From Alphaproteobacteria bacterium (lineage in GTDB: Bacteria > Pseudomonadota > Alphaproteobacteria > UBA828), in the NCBI GenBank assembly GCA_965214705.1, contig OZ243972.1, positions 2,336,001-2,400,000 of the forward strand: 64,000 nt of DNA, written 5' to 3'. Below, in pieces: positions 7,131 to 58,202 of this stretch. Each line of letters opens with the position of its first letter. Within the stretch, counting starts at the first letter, position 1. The notes beneath the pieces are model-generated. The model saw nothing but the letters and a program-made list of their open reading frames with translations, ran no database searches and was not told the origin of the DNA. The position numbers were made by a program, and so were the translations under genes.

Positions 7131-7145
7131 CGCGGTTCTGCTGGG

Positions 7146-9051: not shown

Positions 9052-9368
9052 GTGACACCGACGAGATCAAACCACCTATGAATCTGACCGATCCAGGCAA
9101 GATTGCTGATGCCGCCGAGAAAATCTACGAGGAACGTTACCGGAAGGAGTTTGAAGAGACACACTCAGGACAGTTCGTCGTCATAGACGTAAAGAGTGGA
9201 GAGGCGTACCAAGGAGAGTTCGCGGAAGACGCGCTAAAGGTAGCTAGAGAACGCTCGCCACACGGAGTGTTCCACTTGATTAGGGTCGGTTCCCCGGGAG
9301 CTTTCAGGGTGAGTTACGTTGGCCAACGCACAGCCTCTTGGAATTGGACACTTCGATCAACGGGGTAA
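9048..9368 (+). CDS. Small hypothetical protein, DUF5678-like
   Basis: EKIYEERYRKEFEETHSGQFVVIDVKSGEAYQGEFAEDALKVARERSPHGVFHLIRVG; lower-GC codon usage. Confidence 0.6.
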   Translation: MSDTDEIKPPMNLTDPGKIADAAEKIYEERYRKEFEETHSGQFVVIDVKSGEAYQGEFAEDALKVARERSPHGVFHLIRVGSPGAFRVSYVGQRTASWNWTLRSTG

Positions 9369-41430: not shown

Positions 41431-41464
41431 CGGGACCAGCCGGATCGTCAGGGAGGATGCGGAG

Positions 41465-42934: not shown

Positions 42935-42966
42935 CCTGCCCAACCAACGGATAAGACGAGGCGCCC

Positions 42967-43923
42967 ATGTGCGGGATAGCAGGACTGATCCATCGCGGAT
43001 CGAGCGGCGACATCGGGGCGGAGATGACCACGATGCTCCAGGCGCTCAAACACCGCGGGCCGGATTCCACCGGCTTCGCCATATACGGCATCCCGGTCGA
43101 GAGCGACCACGTGATGCGCTTCAAGGTGGCGGAGCAGGAGGACATCGGCAAAGGCTTTGAAATCCACCAGCAGATCAAGGACCGCAAGGCCGAGGTGGAC
43201 AAGCGCATCCGCAGTATGGATGTGGAGATCGTCAGCGAGGAACAGGCGACCGAGTACGCGTATCGCTATCGCCTGCGCTTCCCCGCCGATGACGACGGCG
43301 GCCAGCAGCGGCTCAAGCGCTTCGCCGACTACATCGAGGATGTCGAGGGCGCGGAGATTCTCTCCCTCGGGCGCGCGCTGGAGCTGATCAAGGATCTCGG
43401 CGACGCCGGCATCGTGAGCGAGCAGTACGACCTCGCCGGCTTCCAGGGCACCCACGCCATCGGCCATACGCGGATGGCCACGGAATCGGATGTCGATATC
43501 CGCTCGGCCCATCCCTACTGGGCCTATCCCTTCAACGACATCTCGGTGGTCCACAACGGCCAGCTCACCAACTACTGGAAGTTCCGCCGGGCGCTGGAGC
43601 ACCGGGGCCATCGCTTCATGTCGAACTGCGATTCCGAGTTGATCGCCGTCTACCTGGCGGATCGCATCGAGCGGGGCGACTCGCTCAAGGAGGCGATGGA
43701 CCGCTCGGTGGGCGAGCTCGACGGCGTCTTCACCTATCTGGTGGCGACGGCGGACAGCCTGGGCATGGCCAAGGACACCATGGCCGCCAAGCCCATGGTG
43801 CTCTACGAGAGCGACGATTTCGTCGGCCTCGCCTCCGAGGAGGTCGCGATCCGCGGCATCATGCCGGACGAGATCGACACCTGGGATCCCTACGAAGGGG
43901 AGGTCAAGGTATGGCAGAACTGA
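42967..43923 (+). CDS. glxB: Class II glutamine amidotransferase (N-methylglutamate synthase subunit A)
   Basis: MCGIAG N-terminal nucleophile, HRGPDSTG, GHTRMATES, HNGQLTN, DSE. Confidence 0.85.
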   Translation: MCGIAGLIHRGSSGDIGAEMTTMLQALKHRGPDSTGFAIYGIPVESDHVMRFKVAEQEDIGKGFEIHQQIKDRKAEVDKRIRSMDVEIVSEEQATEYAYRYRLRFPADDDGGQQRLKRFADYIEDVEGAEILSLGRALELIKDLGDAGIVSEQYDLAGFQGTHAIGHTRMATESDVDIRSAHPYWAYPFNDISVVHNGQLTNYWKFRRALEHRGHRFMSNCDSELIAVYLADRIERGDSLKEAMDRSVGELDGVFTYLVATADSLGMAKDTMAAKPMVLYESDDFVGLASEEVAIRGIMPDEIDTWDPYEGEVKVWQN

Positions 43924-44762
43924 GCCCCGACGACCGGCACAAATCCCATGACATGGGGCTGCACGCGGAGCAGCTCGCCGGCCGCACCCAGCAGGTCTTC
44001 TTCTATCCCGAGGAGGGCGACAACTACACCTATCCCGAGGGCTTCGATGTCGATTTCACCAAGAAGGCGACGATCGACGCAGCCGAGATGGACGGGCCCG
44101 AGGTCAACCTCCGCATCCGTGAGCTGATGGGCGAGGGCTACGGCCACATCGTGGTCCAGAATCCGCTCGCCAAGCACTCCCTCGGCGTCGGCATCCTCAA
44201 TCGCCTCAAGCTCGATTTCGAGGGCAGCCTCGGCTACTTCGGCTGCGGTCTGGTCGACGGCCCCAACATCCACATCAAGGGCCGCGTCGGCTGGTCCTGC
44301 GCCGAGAACATGATGGCGGGCGTCGTGGTGATCGAGAAGAATGCAGGCTCCACCTTCGGCGCAGCGCTCAGGGGCGGCGACCTGGTCTGCAAGGGCGACG
44401 TGGGCTCACGCACCGGCATCGACATGAAGGGCGGCACGATCATCATCGGCGGCCGCGCCGGCGCGTTCACCGGCTTCATGATGCAGCGCGGGCGCATCGT
44501 CATCCTCGGCGACGCCGGTATCAACCTCGGCGATTCCCTCTACGACGGCACGATCTTCGTGGGCGGCACCATCGCCTCCCTCGGTGTCGATGCCGTCCCC
44601 GGCGAGATGACCGACGTCGAAGCGCGCTGGCTCGAAAACAAGCTCGCGACCTACGGCCTGGAGGCGCCCAACGGCGTCGCGAACCTGACCAAGATCATAG
44701 CCGGCAAGCAGCTCTGGAACTACGACAACCTCGAGCCGACCGAGAAGAAGATCGCGCTCTAG
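43911..44762 (+). CDS. glxC: GXGXG-motif protein (N-methylglutamate synthase subunit B)
   Basis: HSLGVG, GSLGYF, AENMMAG, GIDMKGG, FMMQRG, GDSLYDG. Confidence 0.85.
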   Translation: MAELSPDDRHKSHDMGLHAEQLAGRTQQVFFYPEEGDNYTYPEGFDVDFTKKATIDAAEMDGPEVNLRIRELMGEGYGHIVVQNPLAKHSLGVGILNRLKLDFEGSLGYFGCGLVDGPNIHIKGRVGWSCAENMMAGVVVIEKNAGSTFGAALRGGDLVCKGDVGSRTGIDMKGGTIIIGGRAGAFTGFMMQRGRIVILGDAGINLGDSLYDGTIFVGGTIASLGVDAVPGEMTDVEARWLENKLATYGLEAPNGVANLTKIIAGKQLWNYDNLEPTEKKIAL

Positions 44763-44800
44763 CCGAGCGCAGCCTCTCGCTACCCTGCAAGGAGCCCGCC

Positions 44801-46168
44801 ATGGCCAGCGACAGACGCGAAGCCGTCGCCAACCGGCCCAGCCGCAACCGCCACATCCTGGGGCGGAGCCGCATCTTCTCGCCGGAGGTGATCGACGACA
44901 TCCACATCAAGGCGGAGCTCGGCCGCTACCGGATGCGCGGCTTCTCGCTCTTCAAGAACATCCCGACCTTCGACGATCTCACATTCCTGCCGGGCACGCT
45001 CACCCGCTTCGTCATCGAGGGCTACCGCGAGAAGTGCACGACCACGACCGTGATCGGGCCCAAGGCCAAGCGTCCGCTGGTGCTCGACATCCCGGTCTAT
45101 GTCACCGGCATGAGCTTCGGCGCGCTCTCCTACGAGGCCAAGACCGCGCTCGCGCGCGGCGCCACCATGGCCGGCACCGCCACCTGCTCCGGCGAAGGCG
45201 GCATGATCCCCGACGAGCGGCGCTATTCCGAGAAGTGGCTCTACCAGTGCATTCAGTCCCGCTACGGCTTCAACCCCCACCACTTGCGGCTCGCTGATGC
45301 CTGCGAGTTCTTCATCGGCCAGGGCTGCAAGGTGGGCCTCGGTGGCCACTTGATGGGGCAGAAGGTCACCGACCAGGTGGCGGAGATGCGCTCGCTGCCG
45401 GCCGGCATCGACCAGCGCTCGCCGGCGCGCCATCCCGACTGGCTGGGGCCTGACGACCTCGCGCTCAAGATCAACGAGATCCGCGAGGCCACCAACGCCG
45501 AGATTCCGATCCAGCTCAAGCTGGGCGCCGCCCGCGTCTATGACGACGTGCGCATGGCGATCAAGACCGGACCGGACAGCATCTACATCGACGGCATGGA
45601 GGGCTCCACCGGCGCCGGCCCGCACCTCGCGACCGAGGAGACCGGCGTGCCCGGCATCGCGGCGATCCGCCAGGCGCGCAAGGCGCTCGACGACCTCGGC
45701 GCCTCCGGCAGCATCAGCCTCGTTTACGCCGGCGGCGTGCGCAACGGCGGCGACATCGCCAAGGCGCTCGCCCTGGGTGCCGACGCGGTTGCCATCGGCC
45801 ACTCGGTGATGATGGCGCTCAACTGCAACAAGGACATCCCGGAGGCCGACTTCGAGGCCGAGATCGGGGTCGAGGCCGGCTACTGCTACCACTGCCACAC
45901 CGGGCGCTGCCCCGTGGGCGTCGCCACCCAGGACCCGGAGCTGCGCAAGCGGCTCGACCCTGACGAGGCGGCGGAGCGGGTCTACAACTTCCTCCACACG
46001 CTCACGCTGGAGTGCCAGATGATGGCGCGCGCCTGCGGCAAGACCGATGTGCACAGCCTGGAGCCGGAAGATCTCGCCGCGCTCACCATGGAGGCCTCGG
46101 CCATGGCCCAGGTGCCGCTCGCGGGCTCCCAGCACACCGTCGGCCGCCCCGACATGAACCGCTACTAG
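44801..46168 (+). CDS. glxD: FMN-binding glutamate synthase family protein (N-methylglutamate synthase subunit C)
   Basis: GMSFGALS, SGEGGM, GQGCKVGLGG, RSPARHPD, CYHCHTGRCPVGVATQD. Confidence 0.88.
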   Translation: MASDRREAVANRPSRNRHILGRSRIFSPEVIDDIHIKAELGRYRMRGFSLFKNIPTFDDLTFLPGTLTRFVIEGYREKCTTTTVIGPKAKRPLVLDIPVYVTGMSFGALSYEAKTALARGATMAGTATCSGEGGMIPDERRYSEKWLYQCIQSRYGFNPHHLRLADACEFFIGQGCKVGLGGHLMGQKVTDQVAEMRSLPAGIDQRSPARHPDWLGPDDLALKINEIREATNAEIPIQLKLGAARVYDDVRMAIKTGPDSIYIDGMEGSTGAGPHLATEETGVPGIAAIRQARKALDDLGASGSISLVYAGGVRNGGDIAKALALGADAVAIGHSVMMALNCNKDIPEADFEAEIGVEAGYCYHCHTGRCPVGVATQDPELRKRLDPDEAAERVYNFLHTLTLECQMMARACGKTDVHSLEPEDLAALTMEASAMAQVPLAGSQHTVGRPDMNRY

Positions 46169-46190
46169 AAGCCCGGACCGGAGAAGCGCC

Positions 46191-46583
46191 ATGAGCGACA
46201 AGACCGGCGACGTCGACTACTTCCTGAGCCAGAGCGGCCTCGACAGCGAACGCGAGAAGGAGATCGGCCAGCACATCGGCTATCGTTACGATGTGAACCT
46301 GGTGCCCGATTACGAGCGGCTCACGCCCTTCCTCAAGCGCTACATCGAGACCATGGGCTGGACCGACCTGAACTGGCTGGAAGACGTGCACATGGGCTAC
46401 GAGGAAGGCCGGCCGGCGGTGTTCGACCGCAACATCAACGGCTGGGTCACGGTGCCCGAAGACCTGGAACTGCCCGACAATCAGCAGGACCGCGACATGC
46501 TCGCCCGCGAGCTATTGGTGAAGTTCCAGATGTCGCCCCGCCACCCGATGTCCGACCTCAACGGGGCCTATCGGAAGTTTTAG
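46191..46583 (+). CDS. Hypothetical protein (130 aa), last gene of the glx operon; its 3' tail is duplicated downstream
   Basis: Host-like codon usage, GGAG RBS, 22 nt after glxD; no family recognised. Confidence 0.8.
   Translation: MSDKTGDVDYFLSQSGLDSEREKEIGQHIGYRYDVNLVPDYERLTPFLKRYIETMGWTDLNWLEDVHMGYEEGRPAVFDRNINGWVTVPEDLELPDNQQDRDMLARELLVKFQMSPRHPMSDLNGAYRKF
46516..46583 (+). repeat. Direct repeat R1 (3' tail of the 130-aa gene, including stop codon)
   Basis: TGGTGAAGTTCCAGATGTCGCCCCGCCACCCGATGTCCGACCTCAACGGGGCCTATCGGAAGTTTTAG. Confidence 0.92.
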
Positions 46584-46653
46584 GTTGGCTGGCTCGTTCG
46601 AGCCTTGCCACTCCCCACTGAAGCGCTCCGGAGTTTGTTGATCGCGGCAAGCG

Positions 46654-47088
46654 TCAGACGATCTCGTATTCCTGGACTGCGCCGCTGCTATAAATGCCAG
46701 CCACGAACGGCGGGGGCGTCTTGGCCGCAAAGCGCGCGATACGTCGCCTTCCCTTCACCAGCAGCTCGGCGATGTCCGGCCCGGTCGCGTTCTTCATCCG
46801 GATTACGATGACCCGTGCCGAATGCCGCCGGATCGCTTGTAGCTCCGCGGCACGATAACGAACGCCCCTGTCCTTGGTGATCGCCACCCAGCCCATTCGT
46901 CCGACGAGCGCGATCCACTCCTCGTCCGGCGCGTCCTGCGGGAGATGGTCGTCATGCACCTCGACCGCCATTCCCTCGGTGCGAAGACGGTCGGCGATGA
47001 TGTGCCTTCCGAGGCTGCGATCGATGAAGAGCGTGCGCTCAGGCTGCGGCTTGGAGCTCGCACCGGATCGCTTCTTCGATTTCCTCAT
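46654..47088 (-). CDS. PIN-like toxin (VapC45-type)
   Basis: LFIDRSLG, DAPDEEWI, GWVAITKDRGVRY; overlaps the DUF433 gene. Confidence 0.8.
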   Translation of the reverse strand: MRKSKKRSGASSKPQPERTLFIDRSLGRHIIADRLRTEGMAVEVHDDHLPQDAPDEEWIALVGRMGWVAITKDRGVRYRAAELQAIRRHSARVIVIRMKNATGPDIAELLVKGRRRIARFAAKTPPPFVAGIYSSGAVQEYEIV

Positions 47089-47731
47089 GCCCACGCTCAT
47101 AGTCGTGCGCCAGGTCGCTGATGGCTTCACCTGCCTTGTAGCGTTCGGCGATGAGCTGAGTGGCGAGGCCGGTGCCGGCGATGACAGGCCGCCCGGCGGA
47201 GAGCGTCGGATCGATGACGATCATCGCGGGCGTGTCGTCCATGGCGCTCCGGGTGAACGGATAGAGCTTGATTGGGACACCGGCGGGATCGCGATCGATC
47301 CGGCGGAGCGCCGCGCTGATGATCTCCCGCATGGCTGTCTGGCCCGCCTGGCTGATATTGATCAGTTGCCCGTATTGCTCGGTGAACAGGTCCAGCCCGT
47401 CCGTCTCAAGCTCGCGACTGATCAGCGGATGACGCTTGTCCATCTCCTGACGCGCATTCGCCGCCAAGAATTGGATCGCCCTGCGAATGCTCGGCATCTT
47501 CACTTCGTGCTTGCGCCGAATGGCGGCGAGAACGTGAAGCTCCGTGAGATTGAGGAAGGAGAGCTGCGTCGGTACGTGTGCAGGTATTTCGATCAGCGGC
47601 GCGTACTCGTCGCGGCCCACCGACCAATAGCGAATGGTCGCCGCGGGCACGGCGAGGTAGTGGGCGGCTTCCGAGATCGTGTAAGCGGGAAGTTCTCGGG
47701 GATCGTTGGTCCCCGTGCGCAGTCTGGCCAT
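47039..47731 (-). CDS. DUF433-containing antitoxin (VapB45-type)
   Basis: PAYTISEAAHYL HTH, LSFLNLTE, C-terminal IDPTLSAGRPVIAGTG...ERYKAGE...LAHDY. Confidence 0.85.
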   Translation of the reverse strand: MARLRTGTNDPRELPAYTISEAAHYLAVPAATIRYWSVGRDEYAPLIEIPAHVPTQLSFLNLTELHVLAAIRRKHEVKMPSIRRAIQFLAANARQEMDKRHPLISRELETDGLDLFTEQYGQLINISQAGQTAMREIISAALRRIDRDPAGVPIKLYPFTRSAMDDTPAMIVIDPTLSAGRPVIAGTGLATQLIAERYKAGEAISDLAHDYERGHEEIEEAIRCELQAAA

Positions 47732-47912
47732 CGGGCTCTCTCCCGGATGCCATGATGGAATTTTGAGTCAAAAGCGCCCATAGCATGAACGCTGTCTGCA
47801 ATCCATGCCGGCTGTAGCCATCGACGCTCCGAATTGGGATCGACGCCGCAGACGGAAACACCAAGGGTCGAACCCGGCCAAGGGTAACTCTTTGCTTCAG
47901 CGGGATAAAAAT

Positions 47913-47968
47913 CTCCTCACTCCGGTCCCTCTCCGCCCGCAGGGGCGGAGAGGGACCGGAGTGAGGAG
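47913..47968. terminator. Perfect 26-bp-stem hairpin (REP-like or terminator)
   Basis: CTCCTCACTCCGGTCCCTCTCCGCCC-GCAG-GGGCGGAGAGGGACCGGAGTGAGGAG, 41 nt downstream of autotransporter 1. Confidence 0.7.
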
Positions 47969-48009
47969 GGAAGCGTCCGCTCGTTAGAGCGAACGCCAAC
48001 CCTGCGGTG

Positions 48010-50559
48010 TTACCAGCGCAAGGCGCCGCGCAGCATCAGCCCGTGTCCGGGCCTGTTGTCGTTGGCGGCCTCGTACAGGCTGCCCTCGACGCTCACGCTC
48101 GCCGCTGGCGCAAGCTGCCAGCGCGCACCCATGCGCCACCATTGCGCACCTTCGCCCGCGAGCCCGAGCCCCGCATAGGGCGTCACCACGCCCAGGCCGT
48201 GCGGCGCACCGAGACCGTAGCCGACCTCCGTGTGCAGGCGCGCCTGGTTGTCAGGTGACACTCCAGCAGTGACGCCATTCTCCCACAGCTGGTTTACACC
48301 GCTGCCCGTCTGGCCCCACGCCGGCTGCACCACGAGCGCAAGACCCTGGCCCGACCCGCCCGGTGCAAGGCGCACCAGACCGCTTACCCCCGTCTCCTCG
48401 TAGTCGCCGCTGTGGCTGAGCAGGGTCCGGACACGGCCCTCGACGGTCAGCCCCGACGCCTCGTCGGCATAGCGCAAGGCGCCCCCGGCCTCGATGCTGG
48501 TGCCGGTCTCGCCGTCCCCGCCGTCGTTGCGCACGCCGAGCTCAAGCGAGGGCGTGAATGTCGACCCCGAGGCGAGCTTCTGGACGTGCGCCCCTTCCAG
48601 CAGCAGACGCTGCCGGCTGGCACTCAACGACGTGCTCTCAATGCTCCCGGAGCCATCGACATCAGCCGACGTGAAGGCCACCTCGCCCTTGAGGTTCAGC
48701 GTCGTGGTGCCGCCCGCGATCATCTCGTCGCTGGACATCAGCGGCCCGCTCACGCCTGCCGCCACCATCCGCTGCGTCAGGTCGCTCGACTGCGCTCCCG
48801 CCGAGTCATCATCAAGCTCCACCTCGCCCGAGCCAAGGCCGGCCATGGCCCACAGGTTCATGCCACCCGCCATCTGCCAGCCCACGTAGGGGTTGACGCT
48901 GGTCAGAGAGGTCGTGAGCTCGCCTGACGCGTTGGAGGCCGTGTAATCCACCGTCCCTCGCGCCTGCGACACCGCCAGGCCCGCCAGCATGTCGTCACCC
49001 AGCTTTGTATCGATCCCCAGGTTGGCGCTCACCACGCTGCCGTCGTAGTCGACGGACTGCGGGTTGCCGCCGGCGATGTTGCGGTAGTCCCCGCTGCCCC
49101 AGAGCGTCAAGTCTCCGAAGAGGCCACTGCCCCCGTTACCCGCCGCGTTGAGCGTCATGGTGAAGGACGAGCCCGCCAGCAGCCGGCTGAAATCCAACGT
49201 GCCGTTGCCTAGGGCATGTCCGTTGGCCAGCAGGGCATCGGAGAGGGTGGAGGCACCGCCGAAGCCGAAGCTGAACGCTGCGTCCGGCGCAGTGTCTGAG
49301 GTTGCCCGCTCGATGCGGCCCGAGACGGCATCGACCGTGCTCGCGGTCATGGCACGCATCACCTGGGGCAGCACGGCCTCGATGACCGCGTTGCCGCCCT
49401 CGGCAACCACTTCCGGCGCGCTCCCGTAAAAGCCCGACCCGACGATGAGCCCAATTGGCAATGCGCTTCCGTCTGGTCTCCTGACTTCACCGGTGAACTG
49501 GCGGGCGTAGCCCACCTTGGGAATGTCGGCGCTGTCGCTGTCGTCGGTGGGATCGTCGTAATAGTATTCCACGAAGCCGCCTTCCGGGCCGCTTCTCGCC
49601 GCAGCGAGGACCTGCGGCAGAATGAGCTCTCCGGTACGGCCGTCCCGGGCAATCCCTACCAGAGGTTGAAGCTCGAATTTGCCCGGTTCCGTTGCGTGAA
49701 ACAGGACTACGTTGCTGACGGTATCCAGGACGTAGAGGTACACGGAGCCGTGCCGCCAGGGCCCGTTCGGGTCCCGCAGGGCGATCCTGGCTTGCGACGC
49801 AGCGGCCGGATTGCCGCTCTGCTGGTGTGCGAGAATGAATTCCCCCGCCTGCGTGACGAAGGCCTTCAAGGTTGCTCGGTCTACCACGTCCGCGGCGGTA
49901 ATCTCCGGGTCACCGTAATCGATGTCTTCCTGAGCCAGGTGAGACGAGTTGAGATCGAATCCCGCAAGCAGCACGAGCGGGAGTCGAAAACTTGCCGACA
50001 AATACATGACGGCATAGCCGGAGGCGCCTGGGACATTGGGCACATTGAATGGGCCGCCATTCCCGGCTACTGCCGCTCCAAAGGCGGCCTGGGCCGCAAC
50101 GGGGTCGGCCAGGTCGGCCGGGTTGATTCCCAATGCCTGAAGGATCGCTCCATAAATCAAGGGGTCGAGCAGCCGGCCCGACAATGCCATGTCCTTCGCG
50201 TGAACCAATACCCGGCCGTCGGGCGTCAGTTGCACGAGATAGGTGTCACCGGAACGCCAGGGACTCCCTTCCTGCCTGACGAGACATCCAAGATGCGCCA
50301 CGTCCTCCAAACTCGTTACCGATTGGCCGATCTCCCGATTCAGATCTCTCACGGCCAGCGCGAAGTCCCTCAGGCTGGCGCTGCCGTCCTCCACTTGCGG
50401 CGCCGTCACCCGCGGGTGCGCAGGAGGAGTCCCGCCGGCGGGGAGTGGGCAAGCGTCCTGCGCCGAGGCGGGGAGCCCGTTGGAAAAGACGCCGGCCAGC
50501 GCGAACAGGCCAGCCACAAGAATTAGGGAAATCCTGGGTTTCCATGTCGCGGTATTCAT
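48010..50559 (-). CDS. Autotransporter with Cache-like passenger domains (copy 1, 849 aa)
   Basis: Sec signal MNTATWKPRIS...PASAQ; Cache-like ALRDPNGPWRHGSVYLYVLD...GFVEYYYDDP...KVGYAR; beta-domain LWGSGDY...PYVGW...PSLELGVR...GALRW with terminal Trp. Confidence 0.8.
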   Translation of the reverse strand: MNTATWKPRISLILVAGLFALAGVFSNGLPASAQDACPLPAGGTPPAHPRVTAPQVEDGSASLRDFALAVRDLNREIGQSVTSLEDVAHLGCLVRQEGSPWRSGDTYLVQLTPDGRVLVHAKDMALSGRLLDPLIYGAILQALGINPADLADPVAAQAAFGAAVAGNGGPFNVPNVPGASGYAVMYLSASFRLPLVLLAGFDLNSSHLAQEDIDYGDPEITAADVVDRATLKAFVTQAGEFILAHQQSGNPAAASQARIALRDPNGPWRHGSVYLYVLDTVSNVVLFHATEPGKFELQPLVGIARDGRTGELILPQVLAAARSGPEGGFVEYYYDDPTDDSDSADIPKVGYARQFTGEVRRPDGSALPIGLIVGSGFYGSAPEVVAEGGNAVIEAVLPQVMRAMTASTVDAVSGRIERATSDTAPDAAFSFGFGGASTLSDALLANGHALGNGTLDFSRLLAGSSFTMTLNAAGNGGSGLFGDLTLWGSGDYRNIAGGNPQSVDYDGSVVSANLGIDTKLGDDMLAGLAVSQARGTVDYTASNASGELTTSLTSVNPYVGWQMAGGMNLWAMAGLGSGEVELDDDSAGAQSSDLTQRMVAAGVSGPLMSSDEMIAGGTTTLNLKGEVAFTSADVDGSGSIESTSLSASRQRLLLEGAHVQKLASGSTFTPSLELGVRNDGGDGETGTSIEAGGALRYADEASGLTVEGRVRTLLSHSGDYEETGVSGLVRLAPGGSGQGLALVVQPAWGQTGSGVNQLWENGVTAGVSPDNQARLHTEVGYGLGAPHGLGVVTPYAGLGLAGEGAQWWRMGARWQLAPAASVSVEGSLYEAANDNRPGHGLMLRGALRW

Positions 50560-50686
50560 CGTGATGCGTGTCTCCTCGTGCCGGGAAAGTCGGGCGAGAT
50601 TTGGTCGCAAGTGGCTTTCCAGGTGGTTGAATCTCGCGACGTGTCTCCGCCAAATTCGAGTTGCGAGAGACACGCGTTCGGCTAAA

Positions 50687-52657
50687 CCGAACTTCCCCCA
50701 GAATTTCGCTGATTTTCGGGCATAAGTCTTTGTTTTTGCGGACGTATCGGCCGTTGGTGCGGATGCAAAGTGTACCCATGTAAATGAGGATGGGGCGTTG
50801 ATATTTTGCGGGTCAGGCACTATGATCCGTCCCCATGTATATCGAAAGCGTCCCAAACCGGAACTCACCCCCCGCAATCCTCCTGCGCGAATCATGGCGC
50901 GAAGGCGGAAAAATCAGAAAGCGCACCCTCGCCAACCTCTCCAGGTGGCCCCCGCACCTGGTCGAGGGCCTGCGCATCCTCTTGCGCGGCGGAACCGCTG
51001 TGCCCCGCGGCGAGAAGCGCCGCGAGGACGACGGCTTCGACATCACCCGCTCGCGTCCCTTCGGCCATGTCGCAGCGGTGCTCGGGGCTCTGCGCGGCCT
51101 CGGTCTGGAACGGCTGATCGCGGCCAGGCGCTCGCGGCTGCGCGACCTCGCGGCGGCGATGATCGTCGCCCGCATCGTGGCGCCGCGCTCGAAGCTCGCC
51201 ACCGCACGCGGGCTCAGCGGCGACACCCTGAGCTGCGGCCTCGGCGAGGCCCTCGACCTGGGCGAGGTCGACGAAGACGAACTCTACCAGGCGATGGACT
51301 GGCTGCTTGAGCGCCAGGGCAGGATCGAACGGCGTCTGGCCGAGCGTCACCTCGAGGACGGCGCTCTGGTACTCTACGACGTCACCTCGACATGGCTGGA
51401 GGGGCGCTGCTGCCCGCTGGCGCATCACGGCTACTCCCGCGACGGCAAGCGCGGCAAGCTGCAGATCGTGTTCGGGCTCCTGTGCAACGCGCAGGGCTGC
51501 CCGGTGGCGGTGGAGGTGTTCGAGGGCAACACCGCCGATCCGGCCACCCTGGGCTCCCAGATCGACAAGCTGCGCCGGCGCTTCGGCCTCTCGCGGGTGG
51601 TGCTGGTGGGCGATCGCGGCATGCTCACCGAGGCGCGCATCCGCGAGGAGGTGAAGCCGGCCGGGTTGGAGTGGATCAGCGCGCTGCGGGCGCCGGCGAT
51701 CCGGGAGCTGGCCTCCAGCGGAACGCTGCAGCCCTCGCTCTTCGACGAACGCGACCTGGCCGAGATCCATCATCCCGACTTCCCCGGCGAACGCCTGATC
51801 GCCTGCCGCAACCCGCTGCTCGCCGTCGAGAGGGCGCGCAAGCGCGAGGCCCTGCTCCAGGCCACCGAGGGCGACCTCGACGAGATCCGAGCGGCAACAC
51901 GGCGCGCCAAGCGCCGCCTCGCCGGCAAGGACAAGATCGGCCTGCGCGTGGGCAAGGTCATCGGCAAGCACAAGGTCGCCAAGCACTTCGAGCTGGAGAT
52001 CGCCGATGACGGCTTCACCTGGCAGCGCAACCGGGAGCGGATCGCCGAGGAGGCGGCGCTCGATGGCCTCTACGTCATCCGCACCAGCGTGCCCGAGGGC
52101 GAGCTCGGAGCCGAGGACACGGTGCGCGCCTACAAGGGATTGAGCCGCATCGAGCGCGCCTTCCGCAGCGTCAAGACCGTCGACCTCAAGGTGCGGCCCA
52201 TCCACCACTACCGCCCCGAGCGCGTGCGCGCCCACGTGCTGCTGTGCATGCTCGCCTACCACGTCGAATGGCACATGCGCCAAAGGCTCGCCCCCATCCT
52301 GTTCGACGAGGACGACCCGGCCGCTGCGGACGCCGCGCGCGCTTCCATCGTCTCACCGGCAAAGCCCTCGCCCTCCGCCCGTCGCAAGGCCGCCGGCAAA
52401 CGCACGCCAGACGGGATGCCGGTGCACAGCTTCCGCACGCTCCTCGATGATTTGGCGACCATCGCCAGGAACCGCGTTCAACCGAAACTCGCCGGAGCAC
52501 CGCCCTTCGATCTGGTCACCAAGCCGACGCCGGTACAGCGCCAGGCGCTCGATCTGCTTGGCGTCAGCCTGTAGCGTACCCAGTACGCGACTCCGCGAAA
52601 CGGTGGTTTGGAAAGCCACCGCAACAACTTAGCTCAATATCTGCTGGGGAAGTTCGG
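50687..52657 (+). mobile_element. IS1634-family element (1971 bp)
   Basis: Terminal IR CCGAACTTCCCC / GGGGAAGTTCGG; 6-bp target duplication GCTAAA at 50681-50686 and 52658-52663. Confidence 0.92.
50835..52574 (+). CDS. IS1634-family DDE transposase
   Basis: LRESWREGGKIRKRTLANL, LYDVTSTWLEG, GYSRDGK, VGDRGM, IERAFRSVK...RPIHH. Confidence 0.95.
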   Translation: MYIESVPNRNSPPAILLRESWREGGKIRKRTLANLSRWPPHLVEGLRILLRGGTAVPRGEKRREDDGFDITRSRPFGHVAAVLGALRGLGLERLIAARRSRLRDLAAAMIVARIVAPRSKLATARGLSGDTLSCGLGEALDLGEVDEDELYQAMDWLLERQGRIERRLAERHLEDGALVLYDVTSTWLEGRCCPLAHHGYSRDGKRGKLQIVFGLLCNAQGCPVAVEVFEGNTADPATLGSQIDKLRRRFGLSRVVLVGDRGMLTEARIREEVKPAGLEWISALRAPAIRELASSGTLQPSLFDERDLAEIHHPDFPGERLIACRNPLLAVERARKREALLQATEGDLDEIRAATRRAKRRLAGKDKIGLRVGKVIGKHKVAKHFELEIADDGFTWQRNRERIAEEAALDGLYVIRTSVPEGELGAEDTVRAYKGLSRIERAFRSVKTVDLKVRPIHHYRPERVRAHVLLCMLAYHVEWHMRQRLAPILFDEDDPAAADAARASIVSPAKPSPSARRKAAGKRTPDGMPVHSFRTLLDDLATIARNRVQPKLAGAPPFDLVTKPTPVQRQALDLLGVSL

Positions 52658-52782
52658 GCTAAAGAGGCAGGATGTGCCGCAAAAGTTATATATATGCTAA
52701 TTTGTAATATATATTCCCGAGCAGCGCTAGCGGAAGCTTCAGACCCTCTCTCGGATTTTCTGCGGGCTGGGGCACGAGATTC

Positions 52783-52850
52783 TGGTGAAGTTCCAGATGT
52801 CGCCCCGTCACCCGATGTCCGACCTCAACGGGGCGTATCGGAAGTTTTAG
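52783..52850 (+). repeat. Direct repeat R2
   Basis: 66/68 identical to 46516-46583. Confidence 0.92.
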
Positions 52851-52913
52851 ACCGGGTATACCGCGACGGCCGCAACCCGCGCCCGGTGTGACGCGGGTTA
52901 CGACCCTGCGGCG

Positions 52914-55520
52914 TTACCAGCGCAAGGCGCCGCGCAGCATCAGCCCGTGCCCGTGCCCGTCATCGTTGGCGGCCTCGTACAGACTGCCCTCGACGCTCAC
53001 GCTCGCCGCTGGCGCAAGCTGCCAGCGTGCGCCCATGCGCCACCACTGCGCACCTTCGCCCGCAAGCCCGAGCCCCGCATAGGGCGTCACCACGCCCATG
53101 CCGGGCGCCACGCCGAGACCGTAGCCGACCTCCGTGTTCAGGCGCGCCTGCTTGTCCGGTGACACTCCGGCAGTGACGCCATTCTCCCACAACTGGTTTA
53201 CACCGCTGCCCGTCTGGCCCCACGCCGGCTGCACCACGAGCGCGAGACCCTGGCCAGACCCGCCCGGTGCGATCCGCACCAGACCGCTCACGCCTGTCTC
53301 CTCGTAGTCGCCGCTATGGCTGAGCAGGGTCCGGACCCGGCCCTCGACGGTCAGCCCCGACGCCTCGTCGGCATAGCGCAAGGCGCCCCCGGCCTCGATG
53401 CTGGTGCCGGTCTCGCCGTCCCCGCCGTCGTTGCGCACGCCGAGTTCAAGCGAGGGCGTGAATGTCGACCCCGAGGCCAGCTTCTGGACGTGCGCCCCTT
53501 CCAGCAGCAGACGCTGCCGGCTGGCGCTCAAGGACGTGCTCTCAATGCTCCCGGAGCCATCGACATCGGCCGATGTGAAGGCCACTTCGCCCTTGAGGTT
53601 CAGCGTCGTGGTGCCGCCCGCGATCATCTCGTCGCTGGACATCAGCGGCCCGCTCACACCTGCCGCCACCATCCGCTGCGTCAGGTCGCTCGACTGCGCT
53701 CCCGCCGACCCATCGTCGATCTCAACCTCGCCCGAGCCGTAACCGGCGATGGCCCACAGGTTCATGCCACCCGCCATCTGCCAGCCCACGTAGGGGTTGA
53801 CGCTGGTCAGAGAGGTCGTGAGCTCGCCTGACGCGTTGGAGGCCGTGTAATCCACCGTCCCTCGCGCCTGCGACACCGCCAGGCCCGCCAGCATGTCGTC
53901 ACCCAGCTTTGTATCGATCCCCAGGTTGGCGCTCACCACGCTGCCGTCGTAGTCGACGGACTGCGGGTTGCCGCCGGCGATGCTGCGGTAGTCCCCGCTG
54001 CCCCAAAACGTCAAGTCTCCGAAGAGGCCACTGCCCCCGTTGCCCGCCGCGTTGAGCGTCATGGTGAAGGACGAGCCCGCCAGCAGCCGGCTGAAATCCA
54101 ACGTGCCGTTGCCCAGCGCATGTCCGTTGGCCAGCAGGGCATCGGAGAGGGTGGAGGCACCGCCGAAGCTGAACGCTGCGTCCGGCGCAGTGTCTGAGGT
54201 TGCCCGCTCGATGCGGCCCGAGACGGCATCGACCGTGCTCGCGGTCATGGCCCGCATCACCTGGGGCAGAACCGACTCGATGACCGCGTTGCCGCCCTCG
54301 GCAACCGCCTCGGGAGCAGTCCCGTAGAAGCCCGAGCCTACGATGAAGTCAACGTCTCGGATTACGCTTCCGCCCGGCCCCAATATTTGGCCGGAGAACT
54401 CGCGGGCGTAGCCCACTTTGGGGATGTCGGCTCTGTCGCTGTCGTCAGCGGGATCGTCCCAGAAATACTCCACGAAGTCGCCTTCCGAGCTGCGTCTCGC
54501 CGCAGCGAGGACTTGCGGCAGAACGAGCTCTCCGGTTACGGCATCTCGGACGGTCGGCACCAGTGGCCGATTCTCGAATCTGTTCGGGAACGCTGCGTGA
54601 AACGTGATGATGTTGCTGTTGAGGTCCAAGACGTAGAGATACACGGAACCGTGCCGCCAGGGCCCGTTCGGATCGCGCAAGGCGATCCTGACTTTCGCGG
54701 CAGCGGCTGGATCGCCAGTTCTCAGGATCTCAAGAAAGTAATTTCCCGCTGCCGAGACGAAGGCCTTCAGGGTTTCGCGGTCCACCACGTCCCTGGCGGT
54801 AACGGTCGGATTTTCGTGAACGATTGCTTCATCAATCAAGTGAGATGCGTTGATATCGAATCCCGCAAGCAGCACGATTGGAGACCCCAATTCCGGTGAA
54901 TTATAGACGGCGGCGTAGCCGGAAGCGCCGGGTATGCCTGGACTCACGCCCGGAATAGGGGTGGTCGCATCGAACGGAGCATCCGGTTCTTGCGACAATG
55001 TGGCAACGAAGGCTTGGTAAGCGCGTCCGGCGACAGCAGGATCAGAAGACGCCAAGTTAACCAAATCGGCTTGGGAGACACCCAACGCAGTAAGAATCTG
55101 CCCGTAAATCAGCGGGTTGAGCAGCCGGCCCGACAACGACATGTCCTTTGCGTGAACGAACACACGACCGTCGAGCGTCAGGGTCACAATGTAGGTATTG
55201 CCGGAACGCCAGATCCCATCGTCCTGCCTGATTGCGCATCCGATATAGAGCCCCTCTTCGACGGCCGTGGCCTGTTGGGAATGTTCTCTGGACCGCTCTC
55301 TCACGGCGAGCGCAAAGTCCACCAAAGCAGCGCTGCCGTTTGTTACCTGTTGCGCCGTCACAGTCGGGTCCGCAGGAGCAGTCACGCCGGCAGGGAGTGG
55401 ACAAGGAGGTTCCTGCGTCTGCGCCGAGGCGGGGAGCCCGTTGGATAAGACGCCGGCCAGCGCGAACAGGCCAGCCACGAGAGTTAAGGAAATCCTGGTT
55501 TTCCATGTCTCGGTGCTCAT
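52914..55520 (-). CDS. Autotransporter with Cache-like passenger domains (copy 2, 868 aa)
   Basis: Same architecture as copy 1; C-terminal half nearly identical, passenger divergent. Confidence 0.8.
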   Translation of the reverse strand: MSTETWKTRISLTLVAGLFALAGVLSNGLPASAQTQEPPCPLPAGVTAPADPTVTAQQVTNGSAALVDFALAVRERSREHSQQATAVEEGLYIGCAIRQDDGIWRSGNTYIVTLTLDGRVFVHAKDMSLSGRLLNPLIYGQILTALGVSQADLVNLASSDPAVAGRAYQAFVATLSQEPDAPFDATTPIPGVSPGIPGASGYAAVYNSPELGSPIVLLAGFDINASHLIDEAIVHENPTVTARDVVDRETLKAFVSAAGNYFLEILRTGDPAAAAKVRIALRDPNGPWRHGSVYLYVLDLNSNIITFHAAFPNRFENRPLVPTVRDAVTGELVLPQVLAAARRSSEGDFVEYFWDDPADDSDRADIPKVGYAREFSGQILGPGGSVIRDVDFIVGSGFYGTAPEAVAEGGNAVIESVLPQVMRAMTASTVDAVSGRIERATSDTAPDAAFSFGGASTLSDALLANGHALGNGTLDFSRLLAGSSFTMTLNAAGNGGSGLFGDLTFWGSGDYRSIAGGNPQSVDYDGSVVSANLGIDTKLGDDMLAGLAVSQARGTVDYTASNASGELTTSLTSVNPYVGWQMAGGMNLWAIAGYGSGEVEIDDGSAGAQSSDLTQRMVAAGVSGPLMSSDEMIAGGTTTLNLKGEVAFTSADVDGSGSIESTSLSASRQRLLLEGAHVQKLASGSTFTPSLELGVRNDGGDGETGTSIEAGGALRYADEASGLTVEGRVRTLLSHSGDYEETGVSGLVRIAPGGSGQGLALVVQPAWGQTGSGVNQLWENGVTAGVSPDKQARLNTEVGYGLGVAPGMGVVTPYAGLGLAGEGAQWWRMGARWQLAPAASVSVEGSLYEAANDDGHGHGLMLRGALRW

Positions 55521-55768
55521 TGCGAGGGCTCCTGCTGGGGAAAGGCGGGAAACCTAAAGTCGAAAACGACTCAATGAGGAGCCGAGTCGTACGGCGTGTT
55601 CTTGCCGAAATCAAGTTTTCTAAATCACGATTTCGACAAAAAGGGCGTAGTTTGCATCAATAATAGTATGTAAGCCTGCTGAAACTGCATGTGAAAGTGA
55701 TAACGTGCGCCCCTCGGCAAAACCCGCGCGGGTTTTGGAACCTCACACGGTCCTTCTGCGGGTTTGAA

Positions 55769-55844
55769 CGCGAGCTTCCGGCGGTGCTCCAGATGTCGCC
55801 CCGCCACCCGATTGCCGACCTCAACGGGGCGTAAATGGAGATTT
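55769..55844 (+). repeat. Direct repeat R3 (more decayed)
   Basis: Core 55788-55833 is 43/46 identical to R1; flanks are degenerate. Confidence 0.85.
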
Positions 55845-55850
55845 CCGTCG

Positions 55851-56429
55851 TTACCGAGCCCCGTCCGGATCGGGATTGGCGGTTGCCTCCAGCCAACGGG
55901 GCGCGAAGACCAAGACCGGGATGTCGGGCGGCAACTGCGAGTTGAACAGCGCGTTGTGCCACCAGGTCTCCTCGCGACGCGGGTCGTCGCGCCCGAGCCT
56001 CTGGACGGTGCAGGGCAGCGAGTAGCGCTGGCTGTCCTGGGCGAAGGCCAAGACACAGCGCCCCTCACGCTCCAGGTCGGCGGCAAGCGGTGAAGCGGCC
56101 GCGAACGTCGCCGTCAACAGGTCGCTAAAATCGCGCGCATATTGGTAGTAGCGCTCGGCCAGCAGGGCCAGTGCTGCGTCGCGCCGGTCGCGCGGGTCGT
56201 GGGTGCGCCGCGCCAGGTGGCGGAACTCGGGCGCGAAGGACTCCGCCTCCCGCCGAACCAGCAGCGTGGTCATTGCCGGCGCGAGCTCTTCGCCTGCCGC
56301 GCTCAGCACCTGTGGCCGCATCCCCGGCGACGGCTGACCGGCGCGGCGGCGCATGGCGTCCGCACGTATGCGGCACTGCCAGCCGACGAAGTGATCGCGC
56401 AGGCGCTCGGCCCGCGGCGCGGCACTCAC
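55851..56429 (-). CDS. Hypothetical protein (192 aa)
   Basis: Protein-like sequence (LRDHFVGWQCRIR...THDPRDRR...WWHNALFN), GAGG RBS; no family recognised with confidence. Confidence 0.7.
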   Translation of the reverse strand: MSAAPRAERLRDHFVGWQCRIRADAMRRRAGQPSPGMRPQVLSAAGEELAPAMTTLLVRREAESFAPEFRHLARRTHDPRDRRDAALALLAERYYQYARDFSDLLTATFAAASPLAADLEREGRCVLAFAQDSQRYSLPCTVQRLGRDDPRREETWWHNALFNSQLPPDIPVLVFAPRWLEATANPDPDGAR

Positions 56430-56596
56430 CGCCCCTCAGCCCCGATTCGAAAGGTTTGTCCGCATGGTTTCTTCGCCATGGTAGCCGCGGCCTTGGCCCC
56501 CGGCCACGGGGATCGGCACCGCGCGCGTCGTTGTCGCCGATGGTTGGTAGGCCTAGGATCGATCGCACTTATCCCACAGACACGAACGAGGCCCCC

Positions 56597-58162
56597 ATGT
56601 CCCGCGGTCCGGAACTTCCCTCCGTCAACCAGCTCGCCGCCGTCGCCCAGGACTTCATGCTCGACATGACGCTGGAGGATGTGACGAACCAGCGGGAGGC
56701 CATGCGGGGCGCCATCGCGAGCCTGCGCCATATCGACGACATGCCGGAGGAGCGGCCAGCCGTCACCTATCCGCGCACCTCCGGCTACCGGCCGCACCCG
56801 GACGAGAACCCCTACAACGCCTGGTATTGGCGGGCCGAGGTCAAGGGTGCGGACTCAGGGCCGCTCGCGGGCGAGGAGATCGGCGTCAAGGACGTGGTCT
56901 CGCTCGCCGGCGTGCCGATGATGAACGGCTCGCGCGCCCTCGAAGGCTACGTGCCCACCATTGACGCCACCATCGTGACCCGCATGCTCGACGCAGGCGC
57001 CACCATCGTCGGCAAGACGGCCTGCGCCGACTTCTCCTTCTCGGGCGGCGGCCACACCAGCGGCTACGGGCCCGTGCGCAATCCGCGCAAGCCCACCCAT
57101 GCGCCCGGCGGCTCGTCCAAGGGGAGTGCCGCGGCGGTGGCCGCTGGCGACGTGGCGATGGCGATCGGCGGCGATCAGGGCGGCTCGATCCGCATCCCCG
57201 CGTCCTGGTGCGGCGTGGTCGGCCTCAAGGCGACCTACGGCCTCATCCCTTATACCGGGTGCCTCGCGATCGAGATGACCCTCGATCATATCGGCCCTAT
57301 GACGAACACCGTCGAGAACTGCGCCCGCATGCTCTCGGTCCTCGCCGGCCCCGACCCACTCGATCCGCGCCAGCGGGGCGTGATCCCGGCCGATTACGTG
57401 CAGGACTACATGCCGGCGATCGGCGCGGGCTGCGAAGGCGTGCGGATCGGCGTGCTCACCGAGGGCTTCGGCCAGACCGAGGAGACCTGGCCCGAGTTCG
57501 GCCTGCCGGGGAGCGTACCGGCGGTGGACGATGCGGTCCGCGCCACGGTGCGCTGGCTGGAGGAGCGGGGCGCCCAGGTCACCGAGGTCTCGGTGCCCGA
57601 GCACTACCACGGGCTCAGGCTCTGGTTCGCGATTGCGGCCGAGGGCGCAACCGAGTTCATGCTGAAGAATGCCGGGGTCGGCACCGGCTGGTTCGGCTAT
57701 TACGACACGCAGTTCCTGGAGCATGCGTCGCGGGCCGCGAAGACCCGCCAGAACGACTATCCGCATACCGTGAAGAACGTGCTGCTGCTGGGCGGGTACC
57801 TCAAGCGCTACTACCACGGCACCTATTACGCGAAGGCGCAGAACCAGCGCGGGCGGCTGACCGCAGCCTACGACAAGGCGCTCGCCGACGTGGACGTGCT
57901 GGTGCTGCCCACCATCCCGCACCTGGCCGCGCCGATCCCGAGCCTGGATGCCGACTTTGGAGAGTACATGTCGCGCGCGCTCGGCATGATCAACAACACG
58001 CCGCAGTTCAACCTGACCGGCCATCCCGCGATCAGCGTGCCCTGCGGCGTGAGCGACGACCTGCCCATCGGCTTCCAGGTCGTCGGCCGCCACTTCGACG
58101 ACCTCACCGTGCTCAAGGTCGCGGATGCGGTGGAGAAGAGCGCGGATTGGCAGAGCGTGTAG
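56597..58162 (+). CDS. Amidase signature family enzyme
   Basis: IGVKD, GGSSKGS and GGDQGGSIRIPASWCG Ser-cisSer-Lys triad motifs. Confidence 0.93.
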   Translation: MSRGPELPSVNQLAAVAQDFMLDMTLEDVTNQREAMRGAIASLRHIDDMPEERPAVTYPRTSGYRPHPDENPYNAWYWRAEVKGADSGPLAGEEIGVKDVVSLAGVPMMNGSRALEGYVPTIDATIVTRMLDAGATIVGKTACADFSFSGGGHTSGYGPVRNPRKPTHAPGGSSKGSAAAVAAGDVAMAIGGDQGGSIRIPASWCGVVGLKATYGLIPYTGCLAIEMTLDHIGPMTNTVENCARMLSVLAGPDPLDPRQRGVIPADYVQDYMPAIGAGCEGVRIGVLTEGFGQTEETWPEFGLPGSVPAVDDAVRATVRWLEERGAQVTEVSVPEHYHGLRLWFAIAAEGATEFMLKNAGVGTGWFGYYDTQFLEHASRAAKTRQNDYPHTVKNVLLLGGYLKRYYHGTYYAKAQNQRGRLTAAYDKALADVDVLVLPTIPHLAAPIPSLDADFGEYMSRALGMINNTPQFNLTGHPAISVPCGVSDDLPIGFQVVGRHFDDLTVLKVADAVEKSADWQSV

Positions 58163-58202
58163 CGCACCCGGCGCTCGGCCCGAGGGACTGCGAGTTGAAG
58201 CG

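Follow-up and report, generated by a model that had tools for sequence, protein, structure and literature searches.

The window analysed here, a single stretch of 64,000 nucleotides, carries an array of two autotransporter (AT) genes inserted next to p130, a conserved gene whose 3' end recurs downstream in two displaced copies. The tails are referred to as R1 (within p130), R2 and R3, and the motif preceding R2 and R3 as P-left. The features of the region are as follows, a dot marking those given no strand.

44801..46168, +: glxD-like gene with an FMN glutamate-synthase domain (Pfam Glu_synthase, E=3.3e-88), the conserved left anchor
46191..46583, +: p130, a 130-aa gene without a Pfam or NCBIfam family, the repeated sequence being its 3' end
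46508..46583, +: R1, functional p130 tail (last 25 codons and stop)
46654..47130, -: PIN_10 toxin-like gene (Pfam PIN_10, E=4e-20)
47039..47731, -: DUF433/HTH_66 antitoxin-like gene (Pfam)
47718..47813,.: DUF433-to-p192 spacer remnant of TA-only alleles, 78% over 97 nt to G013
47913..47968, -: terminator-like inverted repeat following AT-A, perfect over 26 nt
48010..50559, -: AT-A (Pfam Autotransporter, PF03797, 32.1 bits against a cut-off of 26)
50687..52657, +: IS1634-family insertion sequence (IS), 1,971 bp, with a DDE transposase at 50835-52574 (NCBIfam transpos_IS1634, E=5e-97, 325.9 bits against a cut-off of 100)
52742..52774, +: P-left of unit A, 22/33 identical to 55738-55770
52775..52850, +: R2, displaced p130 tail with intact reading frame, 71/76 identical to R1
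52851..52913,.: P-right, spacer with a hairpin from R2 to the AT-B stop, close to the G017 spacer after R1
52914..55520, -: AT-B, 868 aa (Pfam Autotransporter, PF03797, 34 bits against a cut-off of 26)
55718..55737,.: palindrome of 20 nt forming a hairpin upstream of P-left, 100% self-complementary
55738..55770, +: P-left of unit B, 22/33 identical to 52742-52774, from pattern search and unit alignment
55771..55846, +: R3, original p130 tail, now degenerate (internal stop, original stop lost), 59/76 identical to R1
55851..56429, -: p192, a 192-aa gene of no family that forms the conserved right flank; in empty sites it and p130 are convergent
56600..58162, +: amidase gene (NCBIfam PRK07235, E=7e-203), conserved right-hand context, 89-99% aa identity in relatives

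The left-hand genes are well conserved across the genus (93-100% aa identity for glxD, 87-100% for p130), and p130 is present in 35 of 61 relatives (G000, the genome analysed here, included), where it is 72-100% identical, tail included. The start of AT-A was set by homology at the ATG ending at 50559. Both AT products, which combine the beta-domain match with an N-terminus that is hydrophobic and signal-like by eye, are predicted type Va autotransporters; the AT-B passenger gives a weak dCache_2 match, below cut-off. A preliminary description of this DNA had placed one autotransporter gene, in the same orientation, in each interval between tails, and had stated that no recombinase lies within the array. 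Each interval does contain one Pfam Autotransporter gene, on the minus strand, but the first also holds the PIN_10/DUF433-HTH_66 pair (46654-47731) and the IS, whose DDE transposase makes the second statement literally wrong. The IS is an unrelated, recent insertion: the genome has four full copies, 100% identical, all four with their ends and a 6-bp target duplication (here GCTAAA, at 50681-50686 and 52658-52663). IS1634-family members can generate long direct repeats; such a long target duplication was rejected as the origin of R, the duplications being of 6 bp in 4/4 copies and R not flanking the IS.

R1 comprises the final 76 nt of p130. Its identity to R2 is 71/76 (66/68 between 46516-46583 and 52783-52850, the span first reported, to the left of which the homology extends slightly) and to R3 59/76, while R2 and R3 agree at 60/76 positions and have the same boundary to within about 10 nt. 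All three repeats were recovered where the preliminary description had located them, R3 being set at 55771-55846. A whole-genome search (7,920,168 bases) with the 109-nt R2 stretch returned R1, R2 and R3 as the only three places at E<=1e-17, the next-best match (E=0.03) falling within an unrelated coding region; with three copies, all at this locus, R is not a dispersed repeat. No RNA family was found in R or P-left with Rfam, the sole hits, all below threshold, being on the 47913-47968 hairpin and looking like hairpin artefacts. The reading frame of R2 is intact in three genomes and its differences from R1 are mostly synonymous, which would also be compatible with a recently displaced functional tail. 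All nine genomes that carry R3 have it in degenerate form, with frameshifts and indels in some, and R2 is truncated (G008) or deleted (G017) in two of the five two-AT genomes.

A related motif had also been reported ahead of R2 (52743-52766) and R3 (55740-55762) and as absent ahead of R1, and this was borne out: the two 33-nt P-left copies are 22/33 identical, against 10/33 and 12/33 when they are compared with the 33 nt upstream of R1. The latter values are about those of unrelated sequence of such composition, and descent of P-left from decayed p130 sequence was rejected. A degenerate P-left pattern matched G000 exactly at units A and B only, with two one-mismatch matches elsewhere, and matched exactly at five further places in four other genomes; the motif is also kept in the upstream alignment of 14 array units. 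With all units aligned, A and B units are homologous from the AT start codon through P-left to R. P-left and the unit upstream region are absent from other AT loci and from elsewhere in the genome; they were found in arrays alone, and no donor locus with the unit flanks was found. On the right of the tails, P-right and the G017 spacer after R1 show about two differences by eye, and the blastn match spans R and the first 20 nt of the spacer. The arm of the 26-nt palindrome was rejected as a repeat family, since a search of G000 that allowed 3 mismatches gave no further copy.

In G002, G011 and G015 the site is empty, p130 being convergent with p192 with some 10-30 nt between the matches, and the two genes are adjacent in 4/11 loci outside the genus, two of these from another family. 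The empty site is, on this comparison, the ancestral state. An R3-type copy lies beside p192 in nine genomes, and in these R3 with its right flank aligns base for base with the empty site, into the p192 stop. Because it is collinear with the empty site (that of G002, G011 and G015), R3 is the original p130 tail, displaced, as the preliminary description had held in proposing that the insert restored the gene and left a displaced tail; the empty sites that it had envisaged are also real. The nine R3-bearing genomes form one group in a glxD-p130 tree, weakly supported (82/91), and the p192-adjacent AT is B-type in the eight whose passenger half can be placed, the ninth having lost its ATs. Their R3-type copies are taken as one inherited event on the basis of this grouping and of the B-type AT. 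Relatives carry alleles with 0, 1 or 2 ATs rather than the fixed two-gene layout that had been considered as an alternative. No p130 tail duplication with other cargo was found in 49 genomes of the order. Among the same 49 genomes there were no tail-only p130 matches in other genera.

The gap between p130 and p192 is an insertion hotspot. In G013 and G018 the PIN_10/DUF433 pair (TA module) neighbours p130 with no AT present; G019 has the pair there too, on a contig ending past it. In G001, the DUF433-p192 spacer remnant runs on into some 300 nt of displaced p192 3'-end sequence, and this spacer matches G013 DUF433-p192 at 75% over 421 nt and G000 p192 at 71% over 309 nt. Such a foreign p192 3' end beside the TA module is a scar of the kind expected, at this same locus, when anchoring is homologous on one side and the far junction is illegitimate.

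Families of surface-protein paralogs are subject to concerted evolution by gene conversion. Here the C-terminal AT halves group genome by genome (G008 A and B, 100/98; three G018 copies, 97/91; two G020 copies, 100/99), and the 3' halves evolve in concert within genomes while the passenger halves stay divergent. The resemblance to such families extends to maintenance and remodelling of the array, but conversion would not explain the origin of the tail copies. In the passenger tree the B clade has a support of 97/99, and, at 98/96, four of the five A copies from arrays fall together with ATs from other loci of G019 and G020, by which the A and B passengers are old paralogs and not sisters. Since they are not sisters, simple in-place duplication fails for the second unit unless gene conversion took place later. 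The ATs at other loci share only coding sequence with the array ATs, not the arms.

Exchange between ATs is also apparent in G006, whose single AT is of A type in the 3' flank (90-91%) and of B type at the 5' end and in the upstream region (97-100%); this gene is an A/B chimera, the product expected of an A-by-B crossover. A contig from run X1 (another strain), in which AT-B 5' coding sequence is joined to AT-A upstream sequence at a depth equal to that of its neighbours, is a weak indication, from contigs alone, of such AT-by-AT recombination. None of the eight kinds of mapped structural change ends at an R copy. A deletion in G012 runs from the last AT codons to just before P-left, one of about 90 nt took out R2 in G017, R2 is cut short in G008, G009 and G001 have a deletion of about 100 nt within the upstream region, and G005, G009 and G012 have in common a rearrangement with its break in the spacer after p130. 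The remaining changes, likewise not at R, comprise the chimeric AT of G006 and the insertions of IS copies and of the TA module. The relatives display every stage: empty site, one unit, two units, chimera and deletion.

These data do not support an integron- or CRISPR-like active system, R3 being decayed in 9/9 genomes, R2 lost or truncated in 2/5 and no mapped change ending at R. Integron arrays resemble the present one in their same-orientation one-gene units, the short element recurring between them and their positional polarity, but the present array lacks intI, attI and attC-like palindromes, every unit comes with an upstream region of its own, about 250 nt long, and the recurring element is coding sequence of a neighbouring gene. 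The age polarity drawn from repeat decay is confounded as well: a homologous stretch of about 2.1 kb, made up of R, spacer and AT 3' half, has R2 at its left end, and its AT part is homogenised within genomes, and R3 is without such homology on its right.

From these sequence comparisons, the array probably originated in one old insertion that displaced the p130 tail, after which homologous recombination added a unit and remodelled the array. The incoming DNA, with an autotransporter gene and a new 3' end for p130, would have been joined in near p130 codon 106 in the ancestor of one clade of species, keeping p130 whole (R1) and stranding the old tail beside p192 (R3). Another unit homologous to the first, consisting of spacer, AT, upstream region, P-left and R, would then have been gained next to p130, giving R2; its route, on our inference, would have been either unequal crossing-over between tail copies or homologous recombination with an incoming related unit. 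Later vertical inheritance would have been accompanied by RecA-type reshaping (gene conversion of AT 3' halves, AT-by-AT crossovers, deletions), and unrelated insertions (IS, TA module) would have entered the array. For the first event we infer homology-anchored illegitimate recombination, or a similar one-off, rather than integrase-mediated insertion; the array units have no room for an integrase. The R copies are best read as scars and not as working recombination sites, and the array looks like a fossil.

Homology-facilitated illegitimate recombination was put forward as the origin of arrays of modules and of displaced, orphan 3' ends at Rhs, CDI and T6SS effector-immunity loci (Kirchberger et al. 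2017, PMC5361080). As described there, those arrays have, like the present one, a conserved upstream anchor, an old 3' end shifted downstream as a scar, an order that places the newest beside the gene, no dedicated recombinase, and reshuffling by homologous recombination. In contrast to the variable toxic tip of that description, the piece displaced here comes from a conserved metabolic-operon gene, of which it is the invariant tail, an autotransporter gene that stands apart and points the other way makes up the cargo, and R2 and R3 share one junction and left motif, so that at most one illegitimate event is needed. The arrangement of an HFIR-type displaced 3'-end array, a conserved anchor upstream and an older 3' end downstream of the newer insert, is found at this locus. 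The R2 and R3 junctions are not independent illegitimate junctions; a separate one lies beside the TA module (the G001 p192 3' fragment).

Tyrosine-recombinase (PF00589) matches number at least 150 genome-wide; none of the 150 best lies in the window, and Pfam scans of the 48 window ORFs revealed no recombinase. No integrase-encoding element was found at the p130 site in the loci of 20 genus genomes and five metagenome contigs (p130 >=95% identity), and no integrase or remnant in the nine array-bearing genomes and three metagenome contigs with an AT beside p130. An abundant 2.67-kb tyrosine-recombinase element (roughly 100 copies) was rejected as a mobiliser, the seven copies inspected occupying varied sites without tail duplication and unrelated to R. 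G018 has a B-type AT with a tyrosine integrase gene at a distance of 2.7 kb. Contigs assembled from four of 21 public runs had no R-to-R joint or circle, an absence on which contigs are uninformative, and most skips had sides below 30 nt.

It is unlikely that the units are instead CIME-like cassettes, integrase-less remnants of integrative elements with the p130 3' end as attachment site, in which R and its arms would be attL, attP-like and attR and the units would have accreted serially and be movable in trans by a tyrosine recombinase. The anatomy does match tandem accretion exactly: direct repeats copying the gene 3' end bound the units, the insert restores the gene, and the order gene, core, right arm, then left arm, core, right arm, then left arm, core, old flank is the one that tandem site-specific integration gives, which counts against the insertion and remodelling favoured above. 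The common R2/R3 boundary and related left arm, the old-paralog passengers, the at least 150 PF00589 matches, which permit action in trans, and the B-type AT near an integrase in G018 likewise speak for such cassettes and against the favoured reading; further points against the latter are the lack of a donor locus and the intact frame of R2. Tandems of ICE, IME and CIME at the 3' end of a target gene are known from a review (PMC5704250), and the tandem arrangement and the restored gene are as outlined there. Here, unlike in the elements of that review, no allele has an integrase, a relaxase or a remnant, each unit has one gene, a very small cargo for an element of this type, no functional relative sharing the attachment site was found, and the repeats decay and are unused as breakpoints. 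Also against CIME-like cassettes are the decay of R3, the loss of R2 in 2/5 genomes, the absence of arms from non-array ATs, which share coding sequence only, the lack of tail duplications with other cargo in the 49 genomes, and the varied sites, unrelated to R, of the roughly 100-copy recombinase element. Slightly less probable still is that the p130 tail and the conserved arms constitute an attachment site at which one of the at least 150 tyrosine recombinases of this IS-laden genome moves single-gene AT units in trans. If so, the AT units would be the smallest known cis-mobilizable cassettes, serially inserted into the 3' end of a metabolic gene, and would form a very small cassette system without need of its own integrase.

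There is an even smaller chance that R serves as portable homology for RecA-driven cassette exchange, AT units looping out as circles and re-entering by Campbell-type recombination in a recombinase-free shuffling. Recombination between 76-nt direct repeats is possible, the array clearly undergoes homologous recombination, and a crossover of R1 by R3 would restore a perfect empty site; yet the observed crossovers fall in the 2-kb AT homology and not in R, none of the nine array genomes has a precise R-bounded loss, R2 is gone from G017 and incomplete in G008, and R3, at 59/76 and with frameshifts or indels in some genomes, would be a poor substrate. A single ordinary segmental (tandem) duplication, which the preliminary description had weighed as a source of all three repeats and which would suit the full-length homology of units A and B (R and P-left included), is very improbable, for duplication of the segment from tail to AT yields two tails and two ATs with the last AT abutting the old flank and no p192-side tail in empty-site register, whereas R3 and p192 are in that register, one-AT R-AT-R alleles exist (metagenome locus L102 and G005) and the passengers are not sisters.

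The locus offers a clean, datable case of a surface-protein gene array built at a hotspot between two conserved genes, in which stranded gene tails record the order of events. It also calls for caution, as att-like tail repeats and a decay gradient resembling age polarity can arise from a single old insertion and gene conversion. A promoter and terminator scan did no better than shuffles and detected no promoter in the upstream regions of the units. Within the roughly 250 nt of conserved upstream sequence that belong to every unit there is an AT-rich stretch, which might contain a promoter.

The 3' end of p130, the conserved 130-aa gene that follows glxD, occurs in three direct copies (R1, R2 and R3) within 46000-56500, as assessed by self-comparison and a three-way alignment, in agreement with the positions first proposed for them. 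The features of the array, consisting of two autotransporter (AT) intervals between p130 and the conserved 192-aa gene p192, are the following:

46191-46583: p130, 130-aa gene
46508-46583: R1, end of p130
46654-47731, minus strand: PIN_10 / DUF433-HTH_66 toxin-antitoxin (TA) pair, interval 1
interval 1: perfect 26-nt hairpin
48010-50559, minus strand: autotransporter A (AT-A), interval 1
50687-52657: IS1634-family insertion sequence (IS), 1,971 bp, interval 1
52775-52850: R2, 71/76 identical to R1 (66/68 over the shorter span first described)
52914-55520, minus strand: autotransporter B (AT-B), with its upstream region, interval 2
55771-55846: R3, 59/76 identical to R1
55851-56429, minus strand: p192, its stop right after R3, with an amidase beyond

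Used as query against the whole 7.92-Mb genome, the R2 stretch matches at R1, R2 and R3 only; the next-best match is a chance one inside a coding region. A 33-nt motif, P-left, precedes both R2 and R3 (22/33 identical between the two), while the sequence before R1 agrees with its two forms at just 10/33 and 12/33, as expected from the initial observation of a related motif before R2 and R3 and not R1.

The preliminary description envisaged one AT per interval and an array devoid of recombinases. The AT count holds, yet the TA pair and the IS in interval 1 had been overlooked. The IS is flanked by a 6-bp target duplication, and the genome carries it in full length at four places with identical sequence, indicating recent activity. 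The array thus does hold a DDE transposase, albeit one brought by a recent insertion unrelated to it. This IS separates the AT-A upstream region from P-left and R2. A second DDE transposase gene in the window (DDE_Tnp_1 with DUF772, 12857-14131) is also unrelated to the array. The passenger halves of AT-A and AT-B have no match to a beta-helix family and a sub-threshold match to dCache_2 (21.2 bits, cut-off 26.5); a Cache-like passenger would be unusual for an autotransporter. The p130 gene closes a conserved set (41378-46583) encoding glutamine-synthetase-like, GATase, GXGXG and FMN glutamate-synthase-like proteins, and past the array (56600-59768) lie an amidase and then a gamma-glutamyltranspeptidase gene. 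Neither the 130-aa nor the 192-aa protein has a Pfam or NCBIfam family.

The p130 gene, including its tail, is present in 35/61 relatives (the genome of the window, G000, counted), and p130 occurs in 39 of the 49 genomes of the order. Loci from 20 genus genomes, plus further AT loci, were fetched and mapped, several assemblies having breaks within the array.

Table. State of the site between p130 and p192 in the genus (G, genomes; L, fetched locus).
Empty, p130 convergent with p192, ~10-30 nt between matches: G002, G011, G015
Gap of ~300 nt before p192: G004
TA pair next to p130, no AT seen: G013; G018 (plus one extra ORF); G019 (contig stops past the pair)
Divergent AT without tail copy: G020
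p130-AT ... AT-R3-p192, contig break inside, hence one or two ATs: G014
Single AT, then R3: G005; G006 (with TA); metagenome locus L102
Two ATs: G000, G001, G008, G009, G017
ATs gone, P-left and R remaining beside p192: G012

Both the empty sites and the alleles with different numbers of units (0, 1 or 2 ATs) that had been anticipated were thus recovered. Of 11 loci examined from beyond the genus, 4 (two of them belonging to another family) have p130 and p192 side by side in convergent orientation, which makes the empty site ancestral. Among 30 metagenome loci, 25 (L073-L101) have a p130 only 76-80% identical, and in 10 of these 25 a p192 homolog (41-46%) precedes glxD by ~4.3 kb in the same orientation and is not convergent after p130.

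Nine genomes have a tail copy on the p192 side, and in each of them the alignment with the empty sites stays in register through this copy and the sequence to its right, reaching into the p192 stop. This indicates that R3 is the original p130 tail, and that the inserted DNA carried its own p130 end and left the old one stranded, as the displaced-tail logic of the earlier proposal required. R3 is degenerate in all nine (stops lost or premature, a frameshift in G008, indels in G009). These genomes form one group in the glxD-p130 tree (support 82/91; trees midpoint rooted, one locus), and tail-only matches were absent from other genera among 49 genomes of the order, so that the R3 copies can be read as the product of one old event. 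Of the proposed age polarity, the order of events is still readable from position, R3 being the oldest; the gradient of decay, in contrast, is not a clean clock. The R2 frame is intact in G000, G001 and G009 and R3 is decayed, yet R2 forms the left-hand edge of a ~2.1-kb stretch (R, spacer and AT 3' half) homologous to the R1 unit, the AT part of which is homogenised within genomes, no homology exists to the right of R3, and R2 copies share variable residues with p130 alleles of related genomes.

Upstream regions align across all A and B units (start codon, AT-rich stretch, hairpin, P-left and R), and the spacer from R to the AT stop is also common, with about two differences, counted by eye, between that after R2 of G000 and that after R1 of G017. 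The repeated unit therefore consists of spacer, AT, upstream region, P-left and R. This layout would follow from site-specific integration in tandem as well as from unequal crossing-over of R1 with R3, and anatomy alone cannot separate the two.

Several remodelling events were mapped among the relatives. The single AT of G006 has an A-like 3' flank (90-91%) and a B-like 5' end and upstream region (97-100%), the product that would be expected from an A-by-B crossover. G012 lost its ATs to a deletion that begins within the final AT codons and stops just short of P-left; G017 lost R2 through a ~90 nt deletion and retained P-left; R2 of G008 is reduced to its last 25-30 nt; and ~100 nt of upstream sequence are missing in G009 and G001. 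Run X1, from another strain, includes a contig in which AT-B 5' coding sequence is joined to AT-A upstream sequence at a depth equal to that of its neighbours, which is weak evidence because it consists of contigs only. No R copy marks the end of any of these events or of the IS and TA insertions. Also, p130 was parted from the array by rearrangement in G005, G009 and G012, the break lying in the spacer after p130 and not in R. In this shared rearrangement (L044, L046 and L067 of G009, G012 and G005; also L045, L047, L052) an M19 dipeptidase gene occupies the place of p130, and SnoaL and xanthine-dehydrogenase-like genes follow p130, with the break just past its stop; in G000 the genes involved are located 322 kb off and on another contig. 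AT-A of G017 (L041, 10012-14478) is split near codon 90 by ~4.4 kb including an IS1595-family transposase gene.

Degeneration of R3 in 9/9 genomes and the lack of mapped events ending at R speak against the active integron- or CRISPR-like cassette system of the preliminary description. The best explanation, and probably the correct one, is that one old, one-off insertion displaced the p130 tail, that a second unit was then gained, and that the array would since have been continuously remodelled by homologous recombination. Site-specific cassettes resembling cis-mobilizable elements (CIMEs, a concept drawn from PMC5704250) would produce the same tandem layout and displaced tail; with event ends lying away from R, they are an unlikely source. 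RecA-driven exchange at the R copies is less likely still.

AT trees of 21 rows each were built for passenger and C-terminal halves apart. The passenger-half B clade (97/99) contains every p192-proximal AT with a placeable passenger half plus one G018 AT located elsewhere, and 4/5 array A copies join other-locus ATs of G019 and G020 (98/96), G000 AT-A being placed without resolution. The C-terminal halves group by genome (G008 A and B, 100/98; three G018 copies, 97/91; two G020 copies, 100/99), which points to concerted evolution. Other-locus ATs match the array in coding sequence only, not in their flanks. A and B are old paralogs by their passenger halves, arguing against a plain recent whole-gene duplication. 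A single segmental duplication as the source of the repeats is very improbable.

A stranded gene end of another kind, from p192, occurs at the same hotspot. Beside the TA module of G001, on its far side, lie ~300 nt from the 3' end of a foreign p192 (L070, G001:C102, 2580-2879), the stretch being 75% identical over 421 nt to DUF433-p192 of the TA-only G013; G000 (window 47718-47813) and G006 retain its first ~97 nt. This indicates that DNA of a TA-only allele entered by recombination that was homologous towards p130 and illegitimate at the opposite junction, a one-sided pattern which PMC5361080 proposes for the orphan arrays of T6SS, Rhs and CDI loci. By analogy, the event that stranded R3 may plausibly have followed the same one-sided route.

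At least 150 PF00589 matches occur in G000, none of those listed lying in the window. A 2.67-kb element with a 360-aa tyrosine-recombinase frame (for instance at C1:14074-16739, outside the window) accounts for about 100 of them; its copies are 99.7-100% identical (8 compared) and occupy varied sites unrelated to R, with no obvious target duplication (7 copies inspected). One of these recombinases might act on the array in trans; nothing points to it. Elsewhere in the G018 chromosome, a B-type AT (79% aa identity to AT-B) and a tyrosine integrase gene are 2.7 kb apart (L061, G018:C1:2027000-2043000; 2857-4191 and 6938-9538), amid repeated elements, and this AT has no flank in common with the array; two further A-type copies occur 13 kb and 105 kb from it.
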